From an uncultured Actinomycetota bacterium (lineage in GTDB: Bacteria > Actinomycetota > Actinomycetes > Mycobacteriales > SCTD01): DNA of 64,000 bases. A program made the translations under genes and the position numbers. The notes beneath the pieces were generated by a model that made no database searches, was not told where the DNA came from, and saw nothing but the letters and a program-made list of their open reading frames with translations. The number at the start of each line of letters is the position of its first letter. Position 1 is the stretch's first letter. Below, piece by piece: positions 7,720-42,887 of this stretch. The DNA is taken from NCBI GenBank assembly GCA_963781675.1, contig CAWAGF010000001.1, positions 764,280-828,279 of the forward strand, read 5' to 3'.

Positions 7720-9325
<1,606 letters not shown>

Positions 9326-17446: not shown

Positions 17447-17533
17447 CGGCGCCGCAGCGGGTCACCCCATCGGGTGGCTCAGCCCGAGCCCCTTCCCGCC
17501 GATCACCGTCCGGAGGGAGAGGAGGGGTCTGTC

Positions 17534-19444
<1,911 letters not shown>

Positions 19445-19468
19445 GCGCCTGCGCGTTAGGGTTCGACC

Positions 19469-20242
19469 GTGGGCCTGAGGGACGTCGCGTACGCCGCGTA
19501 CGAGCGCCGTCTGGCGCGCTCCCTCGAGCGCAGCGGCGCCCCCGTCCCGCGGCACGTCGGCGTCATCGTCGACGGCAACCGGCGGTGGGCCAAGGAGCTG
19601 GGCCTCGACGACCCGAACCAGGGCCACCGCGTCGGCGCGCGCAAGATCCGCGACCTGCTCGGCTGGTGCGACGACGCCGGCGTCGACCTGGTCACGCTGT
19701 GGCTGCTGTCCACCGACAACCTCAGCCGGCCCGAGCCCGAGCTCGCCCCGCTGCTGCGCATCATCGAGGGCCTGGTGAGCGACCTGGCCGGACCGCAGGG
19801 CCGCTGGACGATCCGCATCGTGGGCGCGCTGGACCTGCTGCCCGCCGAGACGGCCCGCGTCCTGAAGGAGGCCGCGTCCGGCACGGAGGGGCGCCCGGGC
19901 GTCGAGGTGAACGTCGCCGTCGGGTACGGCGGCCGCCGCGAGATCGCCGACGCGGTGCGGTCGATGCTGCAGGCGCACGCCGCCGAGGGCCGCACCCTCG
20001 AGGAGGTCGCCGACCTGCTCGACGTCGAGCACATCAGCGAGCACCTCTACACCCGCGGCCAGCCCGACCCCGACCTCGTGATCCGCACCAGCGGCGAGCA
20101 GCGGCTGTCGGGCTTCCTGCTCTGGCAGAGCGCGCACAGCGAGTTCTACTTCTGCGAGGCGTTCTGGCCCGACTTCCGGCGGGTGGACTTCCTGCGCGCG
20201 CTGCGGGCGTACGCCGCGCGCCAGCGCCGCTTCGGCACGTGA
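19469..20242 (+). CDS. uppS: cis-prenyltransferase (isoprenyl/undecaprenyl diphosphate synthase family)
   Basis: 257-aa ORF with IVDGNRRWA and RTSGEQRLSGFLLWQ motifs. It may be the short-chain Z-prenyl diphosphate synthase paralogue (position like Rv1086) rather than the true UppS. Confidence 0.8.
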   Translation: MGLRDVAYAAYERRLARSLERSGAPVPRHVGVIVDGNRRWAKELGLDDPNQGHRVGARKIRDLLGWCDDAGVDLVTLWLLSTDNLSRPEPELAPLLRIIEGLVSDLAGPQGRWTIRIVGALDLLPAETARVLKEAASGTEGRPGVEVNVAVGYGGRREIADAVRSMLQAHAAEGRTLEEVADLLDVEHISEHLYTRGQPDPDLVIRTSGEQRLSGFLLWQSAHSEFYFCEAFWPDFRRVDFLRALRAYAARQRRFGT

Positions 20243-21581: not shown

Positions 21582-22863
21582 GTGAAGACCTTCGTGCTCG
21601 ACACGTCCGTCCTGCTGTCCGACCCGGGGGCGCTCGCCCGCTTCGACGAGCACGAGGTGGTGCTCCCGCTCGTCGTCGTCAGCGAGCTCGAGGGCAAGCG
21701 CGACCACCCCGAGCTCGGCTGGTTCGCCCGGCAGGCGCTGCGGGTCCTGGACGACCTGCGCGTCGCGCACGGCCGCCTCGACCAGCCGATCCCGATGGCG
21801 CAGGGCACCGTGCGGGTCGAGCTCAACCACGTCGACACCTCGACGCTGCCGTCCGGCATCCGGGGGACCGACGGCGACAGCCGCATCCTCGCCGTGGCCG
21901 CGAACCTCGCCGCCGAGGGCGCCGACGTCGTGCTCGTCTCGAAGGACCTGCCGCTGCGCGTGAAGGCCGCCTCGATCGGGCTCATGGCGCAGGAGTACCG
22001 CGCCGAGCTCGCCGCCTCCAGCGGCTGGACGGGCATGGCCGAGCTGGAGGTCGCGGGCAGCGACCTCGACCTGCTCTACGCCGACGGCCGGCTCGACCTG
22101 CGAGGAGGCGCGCGAGCTGCCGACCCACACCGGGCTGGTGCTGCTGTCCGAGCGGGGCAGCGGCCTCGGCCGGGTCGCCCCCGACAAGAGCGTGCGGCTG
22201 GTCCGCGGCGACCGCGACGCGTTCGGCGTGCACGGCCGCTCCGCCGAGCAGCGCATCGCCATCGACCTGCTGCTCGACCCGGAGATCGGGATCGTCTCGC
22301 TCGGCGGCCGGGCCGGCACCGGCAAGTCCGCCCTCGCCCTGTGCGCCGGTCTCGAGTCGGTCCTCGAGCGCCGCGCCCACAAGAAGATCGTGGTCTTCCG
22401 GCCGCTGTACGCCGTCGGCGGCCAGGAGCTCGGCTACCTCCCCGGCGACGCCGGCGAGAAGATGGGCCCCTGGGCGCAGGCGGTCTTCGACACGCTCGGC
22501 GCCCTGGTCGCGCCCGAGGTCGTCGAGGAGGTCATGGCGCGGGGCCTGCTCGAGGTCCTGCCCCTGACGCACATCCGCGGCCGCTCGCTGCACGACTCGT
22601 TCGTCATCGTCGACGAGGCGCAGTCGCTCGAGCGCGGCGTGCTGCTGACGGTGCTGTCGCGCCTCGGTCAGGGCTCGCGGGTCGTGCTGACGCATGACGT
22701 CGCCCAGCGCGACAACCTGCGCGTCGGCCGGCACGACGGCGTGGCCGCGGTCATCGAGGCGCTCAAGGGGCACCCGCTGTTCGCCCACGTCACGCTCACC
22801 CGCTCCGAGCGGTCGCCGATCGCCGCGCTGGTGACCGAGATGCTCGAGGACCTGCCGCTCTAG
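21582..22863 (+). pseudogene. phoH2: PhoH2 (N-terminal PIN domain fused to a PhoH ATPase), frame broken by a 1-nt insertion near 22101
   Basis: GTG at 21582 ([18 protein letters not shown]-like). After ...[10 protein letters not shown] the protein continues in the next frame as [15 protein letters not shown]... with Walker A GRAGTGKS and IVDEAQ. The 1282-nt span is 3n+1. Confidence 0.85.
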
Positions 22864-23547
22864 TCGCTCTCGGGGAGCCGTCCCTCGGGCGGGACGTCCC
22901 GGCGGACGGTCGACCGGTGGCCGGCCATCGCGACGTCGCCGTCCCCGCCGACGGTGACGCCGCCGGTGACCTCGACGCCCTCGTCGTGGACCGTCTTGAC
23001 GACCGTCGCGCCGGCCCGGACGACGACGTCCTCGAGCAGCACGCTGTCGACGACCTCGGCCCCCGCCTCGACCTTGGCCCCGCGGCTGAGCACGGAGCGG
23101 GTGACGGTGCCGGCCACCTCCGCGCCGGCGGACAGCAGGCTGTCCGACACCTGGGCGCCGGCTCGTACGACCGCGGCCTTGGCACACCGCCGCCCTTGGT
23201 GCGCAGCGGCCACTCCGGGTCGCCCGGGTCGAAGGGCGGGTCGGCCTGCAGTCGCCCTGGCGCGGGTGGGGCAGCAGCAGCCCGCCCGTCGTCCGGTCGA
23301 GGTCCCACGGCCGGCCGTTCGACAGGTGGTGCCGCAGCGACGTGCGTCTGCTCGACGATCCAGGCGTCGGACATGCCGGAGTTCGGGACGTTCGACAGCA
23401 CCACGCCGATCAGCCGATGGTGCCCGGCGTACTCCTTCCCGAAAAAGGTTCGCGAACCCGCGCGAGGTTCTCGGGGGAGCCCCGTTGCATGGGGTGTAGG
23501 GCGGCGACGGGCCGCCTCGCCAGAAGGAGAACCCCCTTGAAGCGCAT
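22860..23547 (-). pseudogene. decayed glucose-1-phosphate adenylyltransferase (GlgC)-family nucleotidyltransferase gene
   Basis: Fragments lie in at least 4 different frames. They read MRFKGVLLLA..., then FFGKEYAGHHRLIGVVLSNVPNSGMSDAWIVEQ, then SLRHHLSNGRPWDLDRTTGGLLLLPHPRQGD. These are followed directly by LQADPPFDPGDPEWPLRTKGGG and the beta-helix tail AKAAVVRAGAQVSDSLLSAGAEVAGTV...SVLLEDVVVRAGATV. The central catalytic portion (about 150 aa or more) is missing. Confidence 0.6.
23447..23458. promoter_or_regulatory. perfect 12-bp palindrome GGTTCGCGAACC upstream of the small peptide gene
   Basis: Read directly from the sequence. It lies 79 nt upstream of the TTG start. A third GGTTC half-site follows 8 nt downstream, and GAAAAA precedes it. 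Confidence 0.3.
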
Positions 23548-23698
23548 CGCTCTCGCCGCCGCCGCTCTGTCGATCGCCGCCCTCGGCGCCTTCGCCGCCC
23601 CGGCCTCCGCCGCGGGCCAGGTCTGCCTCACCACCGACGTCAACGTCGCCGGCACGGCTGCCCCCACCAACGGCACCAACTGCGTCGACACCCCCTAG
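23537..23698 (+). CDS. 53-aa secreted peptide precursor (signal peptide + 28-aa two-Cys mature part)
   Basis: TTG start 6 nt after GAAGGAGA. Nearly all third codon positions are G/C. The Sec-type signal MKRIALAAAALSIAALGAFAAPASA is followed by AGQVCLTTDVNVAGTAAPTNGTNCVDTP. Confidence 0.6.
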   Translation: MKRIALAAAALSIAALGAFAAPASAAGQVCLTTDVNVAGTAAPTNGTNCVDTP

Positions 23699-23715
23699 TA
23701 CGACCCCTCAGACGT

Positions 23716-23759
23716 CCGAGGGCCCGCTTCCCCTGCTGGGTGGGGACGCGGGCCCTCGG
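23716..23759 (+). terminator. strong stem-loop (terminator/attenuator) between the peptide gene and the kinase gene
   Basis: Perfect 12-bp outer stem CCGAGGGCCCGC / GCGGGCCCTCGG, plus an inner CCCC/GGGG pair. It begins 18 nt after the peptide stop. Confidence 0.55.
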
Positions 23760-23812
23760 CGCGTCCGGGTGTCGTCCGTGCGCGCTTCCGCTGACGGCGG
23801 CATGCTTCGGCG

Positions 23813-25162
23813 GTGACGCCCCAGGTCCGCACGGCTCTCGCGGCGCTCGTGGCCGTGGGGGTGACCGCCGTCGTCCTGGTCCGCGACGAGCGCCTCGCCG
23901 CGACCGGCGGGGACAGCCAGCTGGTCATCGACACGGCCGCCGCGACCGTCGGGCTGATGCTCGCCTACCTGCTGTACGGCAGGTTCCGGCTGCGCGGCCT
24001 CGTCCACGACCTGCTGCTGTGCCTCGCCCTGCTCGTCCTCGGCGCGGCCAACGCGCTGCTGTCCGTCCTGCCCGCCGTCGTCGGCGACGCCCCCGGCCGG
24101 CTGACCACCGCAGGGGTCGCCGCGGGTCTGCTCGCCGGCCTGCTCTACGCCGCGGCCGTGTGGGTCCCGCCGTGGGTGCTCGCTGCAGGTCGCCCCCGGG
24201 CGCGCGCGCTGTACGTCCTCGTGCCTGCGGTGCTGGCCCTCGCGTTGGTGTGGTCGGTCCGCACCGCGCGGCCCGGCTCCGGCGCGGCCGACAGCTTCGG
24301 CGGCACCGACGACCTGCTCGTCAGCCTCACGCAGGGCGCGGCGGCGCTCGCCTTCCTGGTCGCGGCCGTCGGCTGGAGCCGGCCCGCTGCGCAAGGGGAC
24401 TCGGTCGCCGCTCCGCTCGCAGTCGCTGCCGTCTTCGGCGCCGGCTCGCGCATCGACTTCGCCGTCGCCGAGGGGCCGATGTCTGCCTGGGTCGCCGCCG
24501 GGACGCTGCTGCGGGTGCTCTTCTACGTCGCGCTGGTCGCCGCAGCGGTGCTCGAGGTGCAGGCCCTGCGACGGCGGGTCGCCGAGGTCGCCGTCCTCGA
24601 GGAGCGGCGCCGCCTTGCGCGCGAGCTCCACGACGGCCTCGCCCAGGAGCTCGCCTTCATCGTCACGCAGGCCCGTGGCCTGCGCGAGCAGTCGACCAAC
24701 CGGCGGGCCCAGCTCGTGGTCCGTGCCGCCGAGCGCGCGCTCGACGAGTCCCGCCGCGCCATCGCCGCCCTCACCCGTTCGCTCGACGAGCCGCTCGAGG
24801 TCGCCCTGGGGCAGACCGTCGAGGAGGTCGCCAACCGGTTCGGGACACGGGTGCGGCTCGACCTGGCGCCCGGCATGCGGGTCGAGGGGGAGCAGCGGGA
24901 GGCGCTGCTCCGCATCGCCCGCGAGGCCGTCGCCAACGCCGGCCGGCACGGCGGCGCGTCCTCCGTCGTGGTGTCCCTGGCCTCGCGTGACGGCCTCCGC
25001 CTGACGGTGCTCGACGACGGGCAGGGCTTCGACGCGACCGCGCCTGCGGCCACCGGCAGCTTCGGTCTGCTGTCGATGCGCGAGCGGGCCGAGGCGCTGG
25101 GTGGTTCCCTGCAGGTCGACTCCCGCCCGGGCGCCACGACGCTGGAGGTGCACCTGCCATGA
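23813..25162 (+). CDS. sensor histidine kinase, HisKA_3 (NarL-partner) type, polytopic membrane sensor
   Basis: 449-aa ORF with GTG start. The N-terminal ~250 aa are 7-8 hydrophobic helices with no large external loop. H-box is LARELHDGLAQEL. The ATPase part has REAVANAGRHG, DDGQGF and GLLSMRERAEALGG. Confidence 0.85.
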   Translation: MTPQVRTALAALVAVGVTAVVLVRDERLAATGGDSQLVIDTAAATVGLMLAYLLYGRFRLRGLVHDLLLCLALLVLGAANALLSVLPAVVGDAPGRLTTAGVAAGLLAGLLYAAAVWVPPWVLAAGRPRARALYVLVPAVLALALVWSVRTARPGSGAADSFGGTDDLLVSLTQGAAALAFLVAAVGWSRPAAQGDSVAAPLAVAAVFGAGSRIDFAVAEGPMSAWVAAGTLLRVLFYVALVAAAVLEVQALRRRVAEVAVLEERRRLARELHDGLAQELAFIVTQARGLREQSTNRRAQLVVRAAERALDESRRAIAALTRSLDEPLEVALGQTVEEVANRFGTRVRLDLAPGMRVEGEQREALLRIAREAVANAGRHGGASSVVVSLASRDGLRLTVLDDGQGFDATAPAATGSFGLLSMRERAEALGGSLQVDSRPGATTLEVHLP

Positions 25163-25792
25163 CGATCCGCATCGTCATCGCCGACGACCACGCACCGACG
25201 CGCATGGGTGTCCGGATGGCGCTGGAGGACGACGGCTTCACCGTGGTCGGCAGAGGTTGCGACCGCCCCGGCGGCCGTCGCCGCCGCGATGACGCACCAG
25301 CCCGACGTCGTCCTGCTCGACGTGCACATGCCCGGCAGCGGCATCGGCGCGGCCCGCACCCTCACCGCCGAGCTGCCATCAGCCGCCGTCGTGATGCTGA
25401 CCGTCTCCCGCGACGACGCCGACCTCTTCGAGGCGCTGCGCGCCGGAGCGCGCGGGTACCTGCTCAAGGACATCGACCCGGACCGCCTCGGCCCGGCCCT
25501 GCGCGGCGTCCTCGACGGCGAGGCCGCCCTGCCCCGAGGACTGGTCGCCCGACTGGTCGACGAGTTCCGCGGGCGCAGCCGCGCGCCGTCCGCCGCAGAG
25601 GCGGCAGCTGCCTCGCTCACCAGCCGTGAGTGGCAGGTGCTCGACGGCCTCGGCAAAGGCCTCACCACCGGACAGATCGCCGAGGAGCTGTTCGTCGCCC
25701 CGGTGACTGTGCGCACGCACGTCTCGTCCGTCCTGCGCAAGCTCGGGGTGGGTTCGCGCGATGCGGCCGTGCGGCTGATCAGGGGCGACTAG
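25159..25792 (+). pseudogene. NarL/LuxR-family response regulator, frame broken by a 1-nt insertion near 25251
   Basis: ATG overlaps the kinase stop (ATGA). MTIRIVIADDHAPTRMGVRMALEDDGFTVVG continues in the next frame as EVATAPAAV...DVVLLDVHMPG...VVMLTVS. The C-terminus has a LuxR HTH (LTSREWQVLDGLGKGLTTGQIAEELFVAPVTVRTHVSSVLRKLG). The 634-nt span is 3n+1. Confidence 0.85.
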
Positions 25793-25807
25793 TCACGGCC
25801 GATCAGA

Positions 25808-25829
25808 GCGTTGAGCCAGATCTCAACGC
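25808..25829 (+). terminator. hairpin after the response regulator gene
   Basis: GCGTTGAG-ccagat-CTCAACGC, a perfect 8-bp stem, 16 nt after the stop. Confidence 0.4.
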
Positions 25830-25927
25830 CGGGTTGGTCACGACGTGTCAGGCGTCATAAGCGACATCCGGAGCACTGTGGCCGCAGACGAGGCGCAGAC
25901 TGCGCTCGCCCCGACCCGGGAGCCCCC

Positions 25928-28210
25928 ATGGCACTGCACGCGAAGCCCGCAGGAGGCGCCTCCCAGGCGCTGAAGCGCCGGACGGTGGTGGTGGCAGCAT
26001 CGGCGCTCGTCGCGAGCGTGGTGCCCATGGCGGTGGCCGCCACACCCGCTTTCGCGCAGCTGTCCGGCGCCATCTTCACCACCAACGCGGGCTGCAGCCA
26101 GGTCAACGGCAACCTCTACTCCAGCAAGCAGGACGTCTTCCTCAATGGTGGCCCGCACAGCGACAACGGCGGCGCGGGGCTCCCCTCGAACACCTACTTC
26201 GTCCAGGTCACCGACCCGAGCGGCGCAGCCGTGCTCGGAACGAGCGTGGGGTCCGGGGTCGAACGCCCGATCACGGTCGGGGAAGACGGCTCCTTCGCGA
26301 GCTGCTACCAGCTCTGGTCTCTTGTCGCGGACGCCGTTGGCGCGGAGGGCTACGCCACCACTCCCAACCAGGGCGGCGAGTACAAGGTCTGGGTCTCCAG
26401 CGTCAGCACGTTCCCGAACGACAGCACGAAGACGGACAACTTCAAGGTCGTCATCACTCCGCCGCCCACCGACGGCGGATTGCGCGGCATCTCGGTGTCC
26501 ACCAGCGCGACGAGCATCAAGAACGTCGCGAGTACCTGGACGCTCGACAAGTCCGTGACGCCGGGCACGGTCAACGGATGGGCCGGCGGCTCCACCACCG
26601 CGGCGACGTGGAAGGTGGTGGCTGACCGCACGGACACGCCGACCTGGAAGGTCTCTGGCGACGTCGTCGTGACGAACGCCGGCTCGGACCCGGTGACGGT
26701 CACCGTGGAGGACACCCTCGGCGACGCTGCCGCTACCCACCCCGTGCTCAACTGCGGCACTCCGGTCACCGGCACCTCGAACGTGTACGCCGTGCCCGGG
26801 ACGGGGGAGCTGACCTGCACCTTCACCGACACAGCCGTGACCTCGGACCCGGTGGAGAACACAGCACTGGTCTCCGTCATCACCGGTGGCGTGCCCGGTG
26901 GCGAGGACGTCGCTCCCGTCGTGAACGACCCGACGACCGATACAGCCAGCGGTGACCCGTCGATCACCGTTGACGACTCGCGAGCTGCTGCAGGCGCGCC
27001 GAACTCCGAAGCTGTCTCCGCTGACACGACCTGGACCTACGCCGAGACGTTCCCCTGCCCAGTCCCGTCCGCCGACGCGGTCTACGCGAACGGGGTGCTC
27101 ACGAGGACGGTCACGAACACCGCCGTCGGCGACTTCGCCAGCGCCACGACAGACCTGAGCGACACGGCGGACGTCACCGTCAACTGCTACGCGCTGATCG
27201 TCGACGACCCGGCCTCCACCAGCTGGAACCGGTCGTACGGGTGGGGCCTGACGAAGACCGTCGACAAGGCCACCCACACGCTGGCCCCGGGCGCTTCGGG
27301 GATCTCGAACTACACCGTCACGGCCACGCGCAGCACCACGGAGAACGGCTTCAACGTCGCCGGGACGGTCACCGTCACGAACCCCAGCCCGGAGGACGTG
27401 ACGGTCGCCGTCTCGGTCGACCTGCCGACGTCCGCGTGCAACGCGAACCTCCTCGTGCCGGCCGGTCAGTCCAAGACCTGCAGCTACTCGAGCTCCGTCC
27501 CCACGAAGGCCCCCGGCACCGTGACCGCGACCGTCACGATCAACGGACTCACCTTCACGGACGGCGACAGCTACACGTTCAGCGACGAGCCGACGACCAC
27601 GACTGGCAAGGCATCCGTCACGGTGACTGACACCTTCAACGGGTCCGTCATCCGCTCGAAGTCGGCTACGGACGGACTGGCGGAGCTCAAGTACAGCGAG
27701 ACGTTCAGCTGTTCTCGCAACGCGGCCGACTACACCGATGGCGCCTACAGCACCAGCACGACGAACGTGGCTGTCATCAGCGACCCCGCCCTTCAGGCCA
27801 GCAAGAGCGTGACGAAGAACTGCGTTGCCACCTGGAAGGCCGAGAGCGCGACGCCTCGTGGGCCGATCTGGCCGAAGCACGGCGGCAACTGGTTCATGTA
27901 CACGCCGTACACGGCGGGTCCGATCGACCTGCTCGCCGGCCAGACGTACAAGGCCGGCACGATCACGATGGCGCCGAGCGCGACCCCTGGCAAGACCGAC
28001 ATCACCATCACCTTCAACAACAACTACCGGCTGCGCAGCGGTCTGACGAACAACGTCAAGGTCCAGCCGATGGGCACCGCCCCGACCAGCTACACCCAGC
28101 CTGGGGCCTTCACGCAGAAGTTCACGAAGACCGGGTCCCCGATCACGGTGACCGTGCCGACCGCGGCCTTCTACGGCATCCACCTCGACGTCGAGCGGGC
28201 GATCTTCTAG
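25928..28210 (+). CDS. exported multi-domain beta-sandwich repeat protein (prealbumin/DUF11-like repeats)
   Basis: ATG at 25928. Signal peptide is RRTVVVAASALVASVVPMAVAATPAFA. The N-terminal domain has FTTNAGC...VFLNGGP...YFVQVTDPSG...GGEYKVWV. Several Thr/Val-rich repeats of the VTVTNPS..EDVTV type carry paired Cys. I saw no LPXTG or lipobox. Confidence 0.7.
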   Translation: MALHAKPAGGASQALKRRTVVVAASALVASVVPMAVAATPAFAQLSGAIFTTNAGCSQVNGNLYSSKQDVFLNGGPHSDNGGAGLPSNTYFVQVTDPSGAAVLGTSVGSGVERPITVGEDGSFASCYQLWSLVADAVGAEGYATTPNQGGEYKVWVSSVSTFPNDSTKTDNFKVVITPPPTDGGLRGISVSTSATSIKNVASTWTLDKSVTPGTVNGWAGGSTTAATWKVVADRTDTPTWKVSGDVVVTNAGSDPVTVTVEDTLGDAAATHPVLNCGTPVTGTSNVYAVPGTGELTCTFTDTAVTSDPVENTALVSVITGGVPGGEDVAPVVNDPTTDTASGDPSITVDDSRAAAGAPNSEAVSADTTWTYAETFPCPVPSADAVYANGVLTRTVTNTAVGDFASATTDLSDTADVTVNCYALIVDDPASTSWNRSYGWGLTKTVDKATHTLAPGASGISNYTVTATRSTTENGFNVAGTVTVTNPSPEDVTVAVSVDLPTSACNANLLVPAGQSKTCSYSSSVPTKAPGTVTATVTINGLTFTDGDSYTFSDEPTTTTGKASVTVTDTFNGSVIRSKSATDGLAELKYSETFSCSRNAADYTDGAYSTSTTNVAVISDPALQASKSVTKNCVATWKAESATPRGPIWPKHGGNWFMYTPYTAGPIDLLAGQTYKAGTITMAPSATPGKTDITITFNNNYRLRSGLTNNVKVQPMGTAPTSYTQPGAFTQKFTKTGSPITVTVPTAAFYGIHLDVERAIF

Positions 28211-28269
28211 CCGCCTCGGCGCGACGCGACGGGCCCCTCATCCACCAGGGTGCGGGGCCCTCCGCGTGC

Positions 28270-29887
28270 TCAGGTCCAGCTGACGGAGACCGACGGGGTG
28301 CACGCGATGGCACCGCACACCTGGTAGGTGAAGGTCTTCATGCCCTTGGTCCCCGTCCGCTCCTCGTAGGAGGATCCGCTGTTCGGCTGGGCGACGACCG
28401 CGCCGTCGCGCAGGACGCGGTACGGACCGGTCAGGTTCGTCCAGGAGAGGCTGAGCGATGTTCTGCGCCTTCAGGCGTGAGGCGACCGCCCTCAGCGCGG
28501 CAGCCGGCGCCTCGCTCGGCGCAGCAGCGGCCGTTGGCGCCGGACTGGTTGCCGGGGGGGCGGTCGGGGACGGCTCCACCGTCGAAGGAGTGGAGGAGGG
28601 CGTCGTGCCGGGGGTGGCGGCGCTGGTCGGGCTGGGCGCAGGCGTGGCGGGTACGGAGGGGATGGGGCTCGGGCTCGTCGGAGCGGTCGCCGTCGTCGTC
28701 GGTGCGGCATCGGACAGCAGGCGGATCGTTGCGGCGGCGTCGACGCGGCCGTGGTCCACGCCGTTGATGCGCACGGCGCTGCTGGTAAGCGCCTGGCGGA
28801 CTGCGGCGGCAGTTGGCGCACCGGGGAGCGACAGCGCGAGGCCCGCGATGCCTGCCGCGGCGGGGGTAGCCGAAGACGTTCCGGTGAAGGTGTAGACGCG
28901 GCCGTCGTTTCCGACGGCCTTGTTGGCGCCGGGGGCGGCGACGTCGACGCCGGGCCCGAAGTTGGACCACGTGTAGAGAGCGTCGTTCGCGTCGCTGCCG
29001 GCGACTCCGACGACCTCGGCGTAGGCGGCCGGGAACTCCTGCTGGCTGACACCGCTGTTGCCGGCGGCGGCGAACAGCAGCACGCCCCGGTCGCTGGCGT
29101 ACTTGACCGCGCTCTGCAGCGCCGCGCTGGAGCCGCTGCTGCCCAGACTCATGCTGATGACGTCAGCGCCGTTGTCGGTCGCCCAGACGATCCCGTTCGC
29201 CACGTCGCTCATCACGACTGCCGCGTCAGCGACCTTGACCGGGAGCAGCTGGCACGACCAGCAGTACCCCGCGACACCGGCACCGTTGTTGCTCGATCCC
29301 GCAGCAACGCTGGCCGCCGTGGTGCCGTGGCCGTTGGTGTCCGTGACGTCGGCGCTGCCGGTCATGACGTTGCGGCCGGGCATGACCTTGCCCGAGAAGT
29401 CGGCGCTCTGGGTGAGGCCCGTGTCCAGGACCGCGATGACGACGCTGCTCGAACCCGTGGTGGTGTCCCACGCCGCGGGCGCCGCGGTCTTGCTCGGGCC
29501 CCACTGGTAGGACCACCAGGGGTCGTTGGGCAGCGTGTCCGAGAGCTGCCCGGCCACGTCCCGCTCGGCGTACTCGACCTTGCCGCTGCGGCTGAGCGCC
29601 TCGACCACGCGAGCCTCCGCGCCGGCCGGCACCTTCAGGACCTTGACGCCGAGCTGCGCGATGTCACTGACCCGAGCGGCCCCATGGCTGCGCTCGAGCC
29701 CGGACTGAGATGCGCGGTCGACGTCGGCCTTGTACTTGACGAGCACCCGGCCGGGAGCGAACTCAGCGGCGGGGGCGGTCGACGACGGTGCACCGCCGCC
29801 GCTCGCGGGAGCAGCCATTGCCGACACCGGGATCACGAAGCTGGTGACCAGTGCCGTGCCGACGATCGCGATCCGCGTGCTGAGCAT
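28270..29887 (-). pseudogene. exported subtilisin-like (S8) serine protease with Pro/Thr linker and C-terminal beta-sandwich domain; frame broken near 28456-28460
   Basis: There is a signal peptide and an inhibitor-I9-like propeptide (RVLVKYK). The catalytic residues sit in VAVLDTG (Asp), NGHGTTAAS (His) and GTSSATPAAAG (Ser), followed by a PT-rich linker. After ...RLKAQN the protein continues in another frame as SLSLSWTNLTGPYRVLRDG...FTYQVCGAIACTPSVSVSWT, to the stop at 28270. The 1618-nt span is 3n+1. Confidence 0.85.
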
Positions 29888-29906
29888 GTGTCGCTCCCCG
29901 TGGTCT

Positions 29907-29925
29907 CACGCACTGTGAGTGCGTG
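29907..29925. promoter_or_regulatory. palindrome CACGCACT-gtg-AGTGCGTG in the protease leader
   Basis: Perfect 8-bp inverted repeat, 20-38 nt upstream of the protease ATG (29887) and just upstream of its GGGGAG ribosome-binding site. Confidence 0.3.
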
Positions 29926-30048
29926 CCGGCTGACTGCTGCCACCGTGTATCGACGCCGCGGGCTAGTCCCTAACGCGGTGGAGCCGAGGAGTAGTCGGGC
30001 GCATCACCCGAAGGCGCGCACAGCACCCGAGGAATTTCTCCGTGCCTA

Positions 30049-30161
30049 GTCACTCGTGACCAAGGGCTCTGATCAGGAACCGGACAAGGCGCTGGTCATC
30101 GTCACGTACGGTCACAGTCACACCAGGTGAGGACGGGGCAGCCGCAAGCAGTCACGACGTG
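30049..30161. promoter_or_regulatory. cluster of GTCAC motifs in the fumC-protease intergenic region
   Basis: GTCAC-tc-GTGAC palindrome at 30049-30060. GTCAT/GTCAC/GTCAC/GTCAC direct repeats at 30095-30121. GTCACGACGTG at 30151-30161, and the same 11-mer at 25837-25847. Confidence 0.3.
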
Positions 30162-30257
30162 GATGCGGTCGTCGTGGCGGCGACCTCCGCGCGCCCAGGA
30201 GTGCCGGCAGCCGAGGTGCTTTCTCCGCGCGGGTGGTGGGACCTGGCGCGCAGTGGC

Positions 30258-31656
30258 CTACAGGCCGGGGCGGGTCATCTTCAGGACGTCGAGCGCCTCG
30301 TCGAGCTGCTGCTCCGTCAGCTTCCCGTCCTCGACGTAGCCGCCCTCGAGCACGACCTGACGGATCGTCTTCTTCTCCTTGAGCGACTGCTTGGCGACCT
30401 TCGCGGCGTTCTCGTAGCCGATGTACTTGTTCAGCGGCGTGACGATCGACGGGGAGGACTCGGCGAGCTCGCGGCAGCGCTCCTCGTCGGCCACGATGCC
30501 GTCGACCGTGCGGTCGGCGAGCAGCCGGGAGATGTTGGCCAGCAGGCGGATCGACTCGAGCAGGTTGCGCGCCATCACGGGCAGCATGACGTTGAGCTCG
30601 AAGTTGCCGGACGCGCCGGCGAAGGCGATCGCGGCGTCGTTGCCGATGACCTGCGCGGCAACCATGTGCGTCGCCTCCGGGATCACCGGGTTCACCTTGC
30701 CGGGCATGATCGAGGAGCCGGGCTGCAGGTCGGGCAGCTGGATCTCGCCGAGGCCGGCGCGCGGGCCGGAGCTCATCCAGCGCAGGTCGTTGCAGATCTT
30801 GTGCAGGCCGACGGCGATGGTCCGCAGCTGGCCGGACGCCTCGACGAGCCCGTCGCGGGCGCCCTGCGCCTCGAAGTGGTCGCGGGCCTCGGTCAGCGGC
30901 AGGCCGGTCGCCGAGGCGACCTCCGCGATGACGGCGGCGCTGAACCCGGGCGGGGTGTTGATGCCGGTGCCGACGGCGGTGCCTCCCAGCGGCAGCTCGG
31001 CCAGCCGGGGGAGCGACGCCTGGAGCCGCTCGATGCCGTACCGCACCTGCGCGGCGTAGCCGCCGAACTCCTGGCCGAGCGTCACCGGGGTGGCGTCCAT
31101 CAGGTGCGTGCGGCCGCTCTTCACGACCGTGGCCAGCTCGGAGGCCTTGCGCGTCAGGGAGTCGGCCAGGTGTGAGAGCGCCGGCACGAGGTCGTTCACG
31201 ACCGCCGAGGTCGCCGCGATGTGGATCGAGGACGGGAAGACGTCGTTGTGACGACTGCGAGGCGTTGACGTGGTCGTTCGGGTGCACGGGGCTGCCGAGC
31301 TTCTCCGTCGCGAGGGTCGCGAGGACCTCGTTGGTGTTCATGTTCGACGACGTGCCGGAGCCGGTCTGGAACACGTCCACCGGGAAGTGGTCGTCCCAGC
31401 GCCCGTCCGCGACCTCCGCCGCGGCGTCCTGGATCGCCTGCGCCATCGGCGCCTCGAGCACGCCGAGCGAGGCGTTCACCTTGGCGGCCGCGGCCTTGAT
31501 CCGGGCCAGCGCCTCGATGTGCGCGCGCTCCAGCCGCTGACCGCTGACCGGGAAGTTCTCGACGGCGCGCTGGGTCTGCGCGCGGTACTTCGCGTCGGCG
31601 GGCACCTGGACCTCGCCCATGCTGTCGTGCTCGGTGCGGAAGGCCGGAGACGTCAT
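30258..31656 (-). pseudogene. fumC: class II fumarate hydratase, frame broken by a 1-nt insertion near 31248-31252
   Basis: ATG at 31656 ([24 protein letters not shown]...[13 protein letters not shown]...[10 protein letters not shown]). It continues in the next frame as [12 protein letters not shown]...[11 protein letters not shown] (the fumarate lyase signature) to the stop at 30258. The 1399-nt span is 3n+1. Confidence 0.9.
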
Positions 31657-42461: not shown

Positions 42462-42887
42462 CTAGCGGCGGCCGGCGGACCAGCGGACGACGGCCACCAC
42501 CAGCGCGGCCACCGTCGCCGCCATCAGCACCGGGGCTCCCAGCACCAGGGCGTTGACGAGCTCGAGGGCCTGTCGGGTGAGGAACGACCCGCTGCCCATC
42601 GTGCGCTCGACCGCGCCGGCGACCAGCGCGAGCAGGACGTAGACGAGCGGCGGCATGACGACCGTGGCGACCAGGTCCTCGCGGTGCACGGTCAGGGCGC
42701 CGACCAGGCAGCCGCCGACGAAGCTGACGGCGAACACCTCGCGCAGTCCGGAGCCGGTCAGCACGTCGATCGTCCCACCCAGCAGGCCGAGCGCGAGGGC
42801 GACGGCGACCGCGCCGACGGCGGTCAGCCCGCGGCGGTCGCCGACGGAGGGCAGGGCGTGCCCCTGCGTCGGGCCCGGTGCGGTCAC
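42462..42887 (-). CDS. membrane protein (four hydrophobic helices)
   Basis: 141-aa ORF that is mostly hydrophobic helices. No known motif recognised. Confidence 0.5.
   Translation of the reverse strand: MTAPGPTQGHALPSVGDRRGLTAVGAVAVALALGLLGGTIDVLTGSGLREVFAVSFVGGCLVGALTVHREDLVATVVMPPLVYVLLALVAGAVERTMGSGSFLTRQALELVNALVLGAPVLMAATVAALVVAVVRWSAGRR

Follow-up and report, generated by a model that had tools for sequence, protein, structure and literature searches.

Introduction

The ComQXPA locus of Bacillus subtilis carries, in this order, a peptide gene, a gene for a polytopic kinase of the HisKA_3 class and a gene for a regulator of the NarL/LuxR class. Its kinase ComP is a peptide-sensing kinase, as is AgrC. 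In other settings, peptide bacteriocins are typically accompanied by two-component systems and ABC2 transporters that serve in sensing and immunity. A comparable succession of genes is present in a stretch of 64,000 nucleotides (nt), hereafter called the window, from an uncultured soil actinobacterium (GenBank assembly GCA_963781675.1, contig CAWAGF010000001.1, positions 764,280 to 828,279 of the forward strand; GC content about 74%). Between the genes phoH2 and fumC, the window harbors a gene for a small secreted peptide, an RNA hairpin, genes for a histidine kinase and a NarL/LuxR-type response regulator, and two genes for exported proteins, namely a repeat protein of 760 amino acids (aa) and an S8 subtilase. 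A first-pass annotation of this DNA had regarded these elements as a self-contained peptide-signal or cell-surface module on an accessory island.

Here, we present a computational analysis of this locus together with its relatives. Our results are best described by a locus of three layers in which the regulator probably drives a swappable cargo of secreted proteins, a reading to which we assign a probability of roughly 0.55. The first layer would be a lineage-wide mini-gene of the chromosomal backbone, encoding a Sec-exported peptide that is predicted to form a disulfide-closed hairpin and equipped with its own conserved 5′ region and terminator hairpin. As the second layer, immediately downstream, we propose an inherited pair composed of a kinase whose eight predicted membrane helices leave hardly any external loops and a translationally coupled NarL/LuxR-type regulator; most related lineages would have deleted this pair. 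The third layer would be a cargo slot reaching from the regulator gene to fumC, which holds different genes in different lineages, mostly for secreted beta-sandwich or adhesin-like proteins, with an S8 protease also found in the slot of two distant lineages. In this model, the kinase would sense a membrane- or envelope-associated cue and phosphorylate the regulator, which would then turn on the adjacent secreted-protein and protease genes through a shared TTGGTCAC-N-GTGAC element. The data show the gene content, the domain architecture, the conservation, the pattern of presence and absence and the motif common to both cargo genes; the direction of the phosphorelay, its target genes, the nature of the cue and the control of the cargo by the adjacent regulator are what we infer from the locus. 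If the model is true, an inherited sensor-regulator pair keeps a fixed chromosomal address while the neighbouring secreted proteins are swapped between close relatives, and the locus would provide a compact model of surface-protein turnover in uncultured soil actinobacteria.

Results

Organization of the locus

Genes were selected by the GC content of their codon positions and subsequently characterized by domain scans (Pfam, NCBIfam). The features on which the argument is built are the following.

23438 to 23536, forward strand: 5′ region of the peptide gene (upstream alignment of 19 loci)
23537 to 23698, forward strand: peptide gene, 53 aa (TTG start, AAGGAG ribosome-binding site, homologues)
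23711 to 23765, forward strand: core of the hairpin 3′ of the peptide gene (fold energy, covariation)
23813 to 25162, forward strand: histidine kinase, 449 aa, HisKA_3 and HATPase_c (Pfam, AlphaFold2 (AF2) model)
25159 to 25792, forward strand: NarL/LuxR-type response regulator, REC and GerE (Pfam; in frame in contig L028)
25810 to 25843, forward strand: inverted repeat GTTGAG-N6-CTCAAC followed by TTGGTCACGA, just past the regulator stop
25928 to 28210, forward strand: exported 760-aa protein (signal peptide, AF2 model, Foldseek)
28270 to 29887, reverse strand: exported S8 subtilase, convergent (Pfam; C-terminus corrected from contig L022)
30054 to 30063, reverse strand: second exact copy of TTGGTCACGA, upstream of the S8 gene

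By domain scans and direct reading of the sequence, all seven features that the first-pass annotation had listed were found to be present. These are a decayed GlgC-family gene, which carries two clean deletions in comparison with intact homologues; a 53-aa gene with a signal peptide, which is real and conserved; a hairpin behind it, which is stable, conserved and covarying; a kinase announced with 7-8 membrane helices and no sizeable external domain, for which eight helices with loops of at most 19 residues are predicted; a NarL/LuxR regulator; a 760-aa exported beta-sandwich repeat protein; and a convergent exported subtilisin. The evidence on each is given below.

Distribution of peptide, kinase and cargo among related loci

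Related loci (n = 35; loci and contigs carry L numbers throughout) were fetched from metagenomes or metagenome-assembled genomes assigned to Frankiales, Frankiaceae, Mycobacteriales, Actinomycetales or Actinomycetota/Actinomycetes, and were mapped by tblastn. A profile search with the sensor domain of the kinase revealed a family of about 26 proteins, which occupies this one chromosomal site, immediately behind the peptide gene or what is left of it, in six of six readable contexts (the window, L001, L007, L024, L025 and L027). The peptide is far more widespread: it occurs in about 25 related loci, only five of which also carry the kinase. The backbone order phoH2-(glgC-like)-peptide-hairpin-fumC is found without the kinase in about 20 loci (peptide without kinase, be it here or at another site, in L002, L003, L005, L006, L008-L013, L015, L016, L018-L021 and L029-L035), so that loci with the peptide alone outnumber those with peptide plus kinase by about four to one. 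The kinase without the peptide occurs in a single locus, L024, which has lost the peptide coding sequence and kept the upstream region and both of its hairpins (8668-9001). In L025 (8730-8888), the encoded peptide, AVFCAHASVTVNDTNQTQDICTPV, has diverged strongly and preserves both Cys residues.

Behind the regulator, further genes follow in five of the six kinase loci, with large secreted beta-sandwich proteins in four of them; the remaining one has an S8 protease and a 281-aa protein whose fold is unknown. The content of the slot is as follows.

Window: 760-aa repeat protein and S8 subtilase
L001: 1561-aa SpaA_4 protein and Big_7 protein
L007: unrelated 754-aa repeat protein containing Cys
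L024: S8 subtilase (44% identical to the S8 of the window, same position and orientation) and 281-aa protein
L025: nothing
L027: SpaA/SdrD_B proteins

The kinase, the regulator and exported proteins are thus a recurring unit, as the first-pass annotation had suggested, and the cargo genes of the window additionally have a cis motif in common. The test of co-occurrence across genomes that it had called for gave a divided answer, since the succession of kinase, regulator and exported protein recurs, whereas the link between peptide and kinase largely fails on the kinase-free peptide loci and on the peptide-free L024.

Past the cargo of L001 (19063-20156), there are genes for a protein with a BsuPI domain (subtilisin-inhibitor-like) and for a sigma factor of the extracytoplasmic function (ECF) type; no S8 gene lies within the fetched flank of this locus. 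In metagenome scans with a peptide alignment (A1), only 7 short loci were obtained, the broad peptide alignment (A7) was too diverse for patterns, and with the alignment of the kinase sensor none of 262 pattern matches was confirmed.

Descent of the kinase-regulator pair

In a tree of phoH2, the kinase-bearing loci fall into two clades and are interspersed with kinase-free loci. Identities within the clades are 94-99% for PhoH2, 68-75% for the kinase and 70-82% for the regulator; between the clades, the corresponding values are 88-90%, 50-54% and 62-67%. The identities of kinase and regulator scale with that of PhoH2 in 15 of 15 pairs. The sensor half of the kinase evolves fastest (41-69% identity overall and 41-44% between clades). 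Because the divergence of kinase and regulator tracks that of PhoH2, the comparison argues for vertical inheritance of the pair with repeated losses, and not for a recent import. It is the cargo alone that differs between loci, while kinase and regulator are congruent with the backbone.

As for a horizontally acquired island, neither hallmarks of mobility nor an incongruent phylogeny were found. No tRNA gene is present between 15 and 40 kb of the window, the block and its flanks contain no meaningful flanking repeats and no att-like or dif-like repeat, and a Pfam scan of block and flanks detected no integrase, transposase or recombinase domain.

Exported proteins and candidate cis elements

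The 760-aa protein consists of a signal peptide, a conserved N-terminal domain of 140 aa and tandem beta-sandwich repeats that are common to other large proteins. Its AF2 model is all-beta with a predicted local distance difference test (pLDDT) score of 70.8, and Foldseek matched it to nothing but tandem Ig-like arrays. The protein itself is without a Pfam match, and its C-terminus (...TVPTAAFYGIHLDVERAIF) shows neither an LPXTG signal nor a hydrophobic tail and is not sortase-anchored. Residues 43-180 (25928-26470) are 50-60% identical to the N-terminus of many proteins of about 430 aa, some of them with SdrD_B, the few available source names of which include Ramlibacter, Longimicrobium and Acidobacteriota and which mostly lack a Pfam annotation in this part. 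By sequence comparison, the N-terminal domain looks like an unannotated, widespread secreted domain.

The S8 subtilase is supported by PF00082 (139 bits) and a Fervidolysin-type pro-domain (PF22148, 52.8 bits), and has a signal peptide and the catalytic motifs of D, H and S (VLDTG, HGTTAAS and GTSSATP); its C-terminal part comprises a Pro/Thr-rich linker and a small beta domain. An assignment to the mycosins was rejected, with 137 bits for TIGR03921 against a cut-off of 279.

Directly 3′ of the regulator stop lies the inverted repeat GTTGAG-N6-CTCAAC (25810-25827), which is kept in L001 and L007. Just behind it, at 25834-25843, the 10-mer TTGGTCACGA occurs, and its only other exact copy in the 64 kb is located at 30054-30063, so that one copy precedes each cargo gene. 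Matches with one mismatch are also more frequent in the window than expected (9 found, 2.3 expected). On the S8 side, the 10-mer is followed by GTGAC and thereby completes an inverted repeat GTCAC-N2-GTGAC (GTCAC-GA-GTGAC). The region upstream of the S8 gene has several blocks conserved with L024, a locus of the other clade, although the S8 proteins are only 44% identical. These cis elements are the best hint of a co-regulation of the cargo genes. A DosR-like palindrome, GGACTAGYCC, upstream of the S8 gene was discarded as a candidate since it is not enriched in the window (9 against 7.8 expected); it is kept in L024, however.

Kinase and regulator

The kinase matches PF07730 (HisKA_3) with 37.1 bits (cut-off 24) and PF02518 (HATPase_c) with 39.1 bits (cut-off 26.4), and His273 in LHDGLAQE is invariant over 27 family members. 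In the regulator, PF00072 (REC) and PF00196 (GerE) score above their cut-offs. The stop codon of the kinase gene and the ATG of the regulator gene overlap (ATGA), and by these features both proteins belong to a NarL/LuxR-class two-component system.

The AF2 model of the kinase (pLDDT 87) predicts eight membrane helices, of which the last runs directly into the HisKA_3 helix, and inter-helix loops of no more than 19 residues. Arg-rich loops alternate on one side, which fits cytoplasmic N- and C-termini. Of the loops predicted to lie outside, the longest (residues 149-167) holds a conserved DSFGGT motif. Eight of ten members of the kinase family show sub-threshold similarity to MASE3 (PF17159; 13-25 bits, the gathering score being 31, and always over positions about 84-218), while the kinase of the window has no such match at E <= 0.01. 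A literature search on MASE3 kinases found no papers, and to our knowledge MASE3 has no known ligand. Weak profile matches to LiaS, MadS and MacS were also observed, with NCBIfam scores of 39-95 bits against cut-offs of 300-700.

The peptide gene and its flanking RNA elements

The peptide gene starts with TTG, six bases past an AAGGAG ribosome-binding site. Its product consists of a signal peptide of the Sec type (KR, hydrophobic core, PASA|AG) followed by a mature part of about 27-28 aa, AGQVCLTTDVNVAGTAAPTNGTNCVDTP, with two invariant Cys residues. Read directly, the mature sequence contains two Asp and lacks both Lys and Arg, which makes it acidic. A protein search yielded 39 close homologues, which measure 48-88 aa and hardly vary in their mature part. 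When 1.84 billion cluster representatives were searched with a profile, the family expanded to 75 clusters at 50% identity, nearly all of 44-80 aa, which share the signal peptide, the two invariant Cys and, in the stretch from one Cys to the other, an NG turn. Variation in the mature region is weighted to third codon positions (13, 10 and 21 of 26 sites variable at positions 1, 2 and 3), and the PTNGTNC stretch displays synonymous changes only. No Pfam, NCBIfam or PDB match was found for the family, the PDB profile search returning nothing below E = 1.9. By these data, the gene is real and conserved and belongs to an undescribed family: it encodes an unannotated, strongly constrained small secreted product with its own 5′ region and terminator, which gene callers often miss.

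The 5′ region of about 100 nt contains CGAGG-N14-SCGTTG at fixed spacing, followed by a GC hairpin and then by AAGGAG. It is kept in every context (19 loci), including the unrelated contexts of L014 and L021, and may act as a promoter for an alternative sigma factor or as a leader RNA. Scans for sigma-70 promoters and U-tract terminators were uninformative in DNA of 74% GC. A 12-bp palindrome, GGTTCGCGAACC (23449-23460), was rejected as an operator as it is not conserved in relatives.

The hairpin at 23711-23765 has a folding energy of -60.7 kcal/mol (z = -4.6) and lacks a U-tract. It is located 3′ of the peptide gene in essentially all loci, six of 17 pairs covary, and its loop, CCCCTGCTGGGTGGGG, is conserved across all lineages; this loop conservation exceeds the need of a plain terminator. 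An Rfam scan of the whole window gave no family at the gathering score, so neither the 5′ region nor the hairpin belongs to a known RNA family. Within the loci fetched, the hairpin was found only at this site. One clade has a second copy after phoH2, and the two copies bracket the peptide gene (L007, 3546 and 3890; L024, 8758 and 8908; L025, 8556 and 8917; L027, 8595 and 8918). An apparent second copy of the loop in the window, at 42775, is a chance match within coding sequence. Likewise, a likeness over 37 nt (76% identity) between the repeat-protein gene (27346-27382, GFNVAGTVTVTN; FNVAGT) and the peptide gene (23635-23671, DVNVAGTAAPTN; DVNVAGT) was judged to be due to chance, as both are GC-rich DNA coding for beta strands.

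In one sub-lineage, represented by L002 (2878-4580), L003, L012, L034 and L035, the glgC-like gene is replaced by genes for a DrrA-like ATP-binding cassette (ABC) ATPase and an ABC2 permease, which immediately precede the peptide gene.

Backbone, remnant gene and extent of the extra DNA

The following features delimit the locus or belong to its backbone.

21585 to 22863, forward strand: phoH2 (PIN_4 and PhoH), backbone; Pfam matches split over two frames
22860 to 23431, reverse strand: remnant of a GlgC-like sugar-1-phosphate nucleotidylyltransferase gene, with a Hexapep_GlmU C-terminus
23779 to 23782: left GTGC microhomology of the circular junction in contig L023
30216 to 30219: right GTGC microhomology of the same junction
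30258 to 31653, reverse strand: fumC, backbone; frameshifted as printed

Past fumC, there are genes for a FUSC-type membrane protein and an Exo_endo_phos protein, and glpX. The conserved backbone extends upstream of phoH2, where 17447-20242 encodes a GGDEF-EAL protein together with a UppS-type prenyltransferase (Prenyltransf, 19460-20242); it recurs in relatives along with PEPCK and HlyIII.

The locus L018, about 90% identical to the window at the DNA level, represents an empty site: it aligns with 23434-23765 and then passes straight to 30262-30765. The extra DNA therefore comprises 23766-30257 with kinase, regulator, repeat protein and protease, and does not include the peptide gene. The first-pass annotation had placed about 7 kb of slightly less GC-rich extra DNA between phoH2 and fumC. 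The insertion exists, with a length of about 6.5 kb instead, the GlgC remnant, the peptide gene and the hairpin being backbone in comparison with L018. A lower GC content is found at about 25.8-28.5 kb and 29-30.6 kb (65-71%), but not in the kinase and regulator genes (74-77%). In the repeat-protein gene, the low value arises from the first and second codon positions; because the GC content of the third position (GC3) is still 0.90, it mostly reflects amino-acid composition. Low GC as a proof of foreign origin of the repeat protein is weakened by the same value.

About 560 of roughly 1170 bp are left of the GlgC-like gene. One deletion of about 490 bp is located at 23247/23248 and another of about 103-118 bp, which removed the start codon, at 23432/23438; both junctions are clean against four relatives (L001, L017, L018 and L019). 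Judged from these alignments, the gene is a true deletion remnant, unlike the frameshifted genes treated next. The intact homologue in L001 (388 aa) reaches 292 bits against TIGR02091 (glgC), which is under the cut-off.

Reliability of the assembly

As printed, the reading frame changes in phoH2 (an apparent +1 shift at about 22100-22105), in the regulator gene (25249/50), in the S8 gene (28449) and in fumC (about 31054-31247). Those in the regulator and S8 genes were checked with two short contigs, L028 and L022 (Logan assemblies of ERR11523665, an independent run), which are 99.7-99.9% identical to the window. In L028, the extra G at 25249/50 is absent and the regulator reads MTIRIVIADDHAPTRMGVRMALEDDGFTVVAEVATAP... 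in a single frame. L022 is without the extra G at 28449; its S8 protein thereby gains a regular C-terminus, a small beta domain, and the true stop is near 28270 and not at 28238. Since independent assemblies of the same population read in frame, the frameshifts in the regulator and S8 genes are single-base assembly errors in G runs, and a reading of the regulator as a pseudogene is ruled out. For phoH2, tblastn found 99% identity to the intact PhoH2 of L001 on either side of the shift, so an assembly error is probable here; the shift in fumC is probably an error as well. The window comes from an error-prone assembly, probably of the long-read type, and apparent pseudogenes in it need a second assembly before they can be trusted.

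Discussion

Several observations weigh against a three-layer locus with regulator-driven cargo. The regions preceding the cargo of L001, L007 and L027 show no obvious conservation of the shared 10-mer TTGGTCACGA, and it could be a promoter element instead of an operator of the regulator. The kinase start follows the hairpin at a distance of only about 48 nt, and transcription of kinase and regulator by read-through from the peptide promoter may tie the peptide more closely to the kinase than separate layers imply. Moreover, simple vertical descent explains neither the circularly permuted contig L023 described below nor the recurrent losses, which removed the entire block and have their end points close beside the hairpin and the fumC stop.

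In a circuit with the order of ComX, ComP and ComA, the disulfide peptide would be the cue, the kinase would read it and the regulator would drive the genes of the secreted protein and the protease; lineages with the peptide alone would use it otherwise or via another receptor. Such a circuit would account for the order peptide-hairpin-kinase-regulator in five of six kinase loci from two clades and for a kinase family found nowhere else, and the predicted eight-helix sensor without an external domain resembles the peptide-sensing ComP and AgrC, with the conserved DSFGGT motif in its largest predicted outside loop. The absence of a U-tract at the hairpin and its distance of 48 nt to the kinase start are compatible with leaky termination and co-transcription. 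Yet about 20 loci maintain an equally conserved peptide with no HisKA_3 kinase in their flanks, and L024 has retained kinase, regulator and S8 without a peptide coding sequence. The mature peptide is near-invariant, while the sensor falls to 41-44% identity between clades; and as the diverged peptide of L025 faces an ordinary sensor (62-67% identical to those of its clade mates), no co-variation of ligand and receptor is visible. No cis motif is common to the peptide promoter and the cargo promoters, and shared ancestry fully accounts for the adjacency of the genes. We regard a peptide-signalling circuit as doubtful. Together with the vertical inheritance of kinase and regulator, the same findings fail to support the self-contained peptide-signal module on an accessory island of the first-pass annotation: the peptide gene is a backbone gene. 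If the peptide were nevertheless the cue of the kinase, this would be a rare case of signalling by a ribosomal, unmodified peptide in Actinobacteria. A review from 2016 describes actinobacterial signalling as based mainly on gamma-butyrolactones and on cyclic or modified peptides (PMC4748050), and our literature search on actinobacterial peptide pheromones returned general reviews only. A second role for the peptide would be that of a Sec-dependent, bacteriocin-like or antimicrobial product, for which the kinase-regulator pair or an ABC2-type transporter provides sensing or immunity. The DrrA-like ATPase and ABC2 permease directly upstream of the peptide gene in five loci (L002, L003, L012, L034 and L035) would fit this role, but the acidic mature peptide is unlike membrane-active bacteriocins, in many loci the peptide gene is accompanied by no transporter or kinase, and its extreme conservation is at odds with the usual diversity of bacteriocins. 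We consider an antimicrobial function very improbable.

The tight ends of the losses direct attention to the block itself (23780-30217), which might be an excisable or tandem-amplifiable cassette of kinase, regulator and cargo without a recombinase of its own; this would explain both the patchy distribution and the deletion ends. One indication is L023 (ENA ERZ25039498 contig_104658, 6449 bp, from an independent assembly), an exact circular permutation of 23779-30216: it aligns with 25536-30216 and runs on into 23779-25534, its contig ends meeting at 25534/25536, and the junction falls in a GTGC microhomology of 4 bp. Its differences from the window include many indels, and its substitutions are enriched at third positions (49 of 83) and unevenly spread, from 0.3% in the repeat-protein gene to 7.7% near the S8 start; because of this bias and unevenness, L023 is a distinct haplotype and not mere read noise. 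The ends of the unit lie within 14 and 40 nt of the insertion defined by the empty site, and kinase-free relatives have differing short spacers between hairpin and fumC stop, which points to several independent and tightly bounded deletions. On the other hand, block and flanks are free of the mobility features and repeats searched for above, the homology at the junction amounts to only 4 bp, L028 from an independent run reads straight across the chromosomal junction from hairpin to kinase, and the phylogeny of the kinase agrees with that of the backbone. The same picture would arise from a tandem duplication that was collapsed, or from an error of the assembler in a long-read contig that is noisy and of low coverage, so that L023 represents either a circle, a tandem copy or an artefact of the assembler. 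A mobile or amplifiable cassette is unlikely in our view. The same holds for the combination of both ideas, that is, a new kind of actinobacterial circuit for signalling between cells or at the envelope, in which an unmodified, Sec-exported disulfide hairpin peptide of about 27 aa is read directly by an eight-helix HisKA_3 kinase, with the gene order of ComX, ComP and ComA and no modification enzyme, plus an excisable or amplifiable recombinase-free cassette; we judge it improbable.

Comparison with known systems

With ComQXPA, the locus has in common the gene order and a polytopic kinase without a large external domain. In contrast, no ComQ isoprenyl transferase is encoded by any open reading frame of 22860-30257 (Pfam, NCBIfam), and the nearby UppS-type Prenyltransf gene is backbone, present in kinase-free loci too. 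The peptide described here carries a Sec signal and two Cys, whereas ComX has a modified Trp; it is near-invariant and mostly kinase-free, while the Com peptide is polymorphic along with its receptor.

Loci of the lantibiotic type (LanRK with LanP) are similar in that the peptide gene has a two-component system and an S8 protease in its vicinity, and the hairpin could allow read-through. They differ by their LanB, LanC, LanM or LanT, none of which is found here, by the ordinary Sec leader of our peptide, and by the kinase, which is of the polytopic HisKA_3 type here and has an EnvZ-like two-helix sensor there. From Agr, the locus is set apart by the missing match to AgrB and by a regulator of the GerE/LuxR instead of the LytTR type. 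More generally, the Pfam and NCBIfam scans of the island reading frames detected no modification enzyme of ribosomally synthesized and post-translationally modified peptides (LanB/C/M, radical SAM, YcaO and similar), no dedicated or ABC exporter and no AgrB. In this respect our results agree with the first-pass annotation, which had reported the same absences and had matched the locus to neither the lanthipeptide nor the Agr or Com layout; the defining features of all three layouts are lacking.

Further parallels for the two-component system are the intramembrane-sensing envelope systems of the NarL class, LiaSR/VraSR and MacRS of Streptomyces, in which a HisKA_3 kinase with minimal external loops and a NarL/LuxR regulator are likewise encoded beside envelope or secreted-protein genes. 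The kinase described here has eight predicted membrane helices in comparison to 2-5, and is without a LiaF-like or transporter partner. For the cargo, the closest counterparts are Ig-repeat surface and secreted proteins of Gram-positive bacteria, of the SpaA/SdrD_B/DUF11 type. The 760-aa protein resembles them in its predicted all-beta tandem sandwiches, and sister cargo contains SpaA_4, SdrD_B and Big_7; it differs in having no Pfam match, LPXTG signal or membrane anchor. In summary, the NarL-class two-component system and the S8 subtilase belong to known types, while the adjoining small-peptide family is undescribed.

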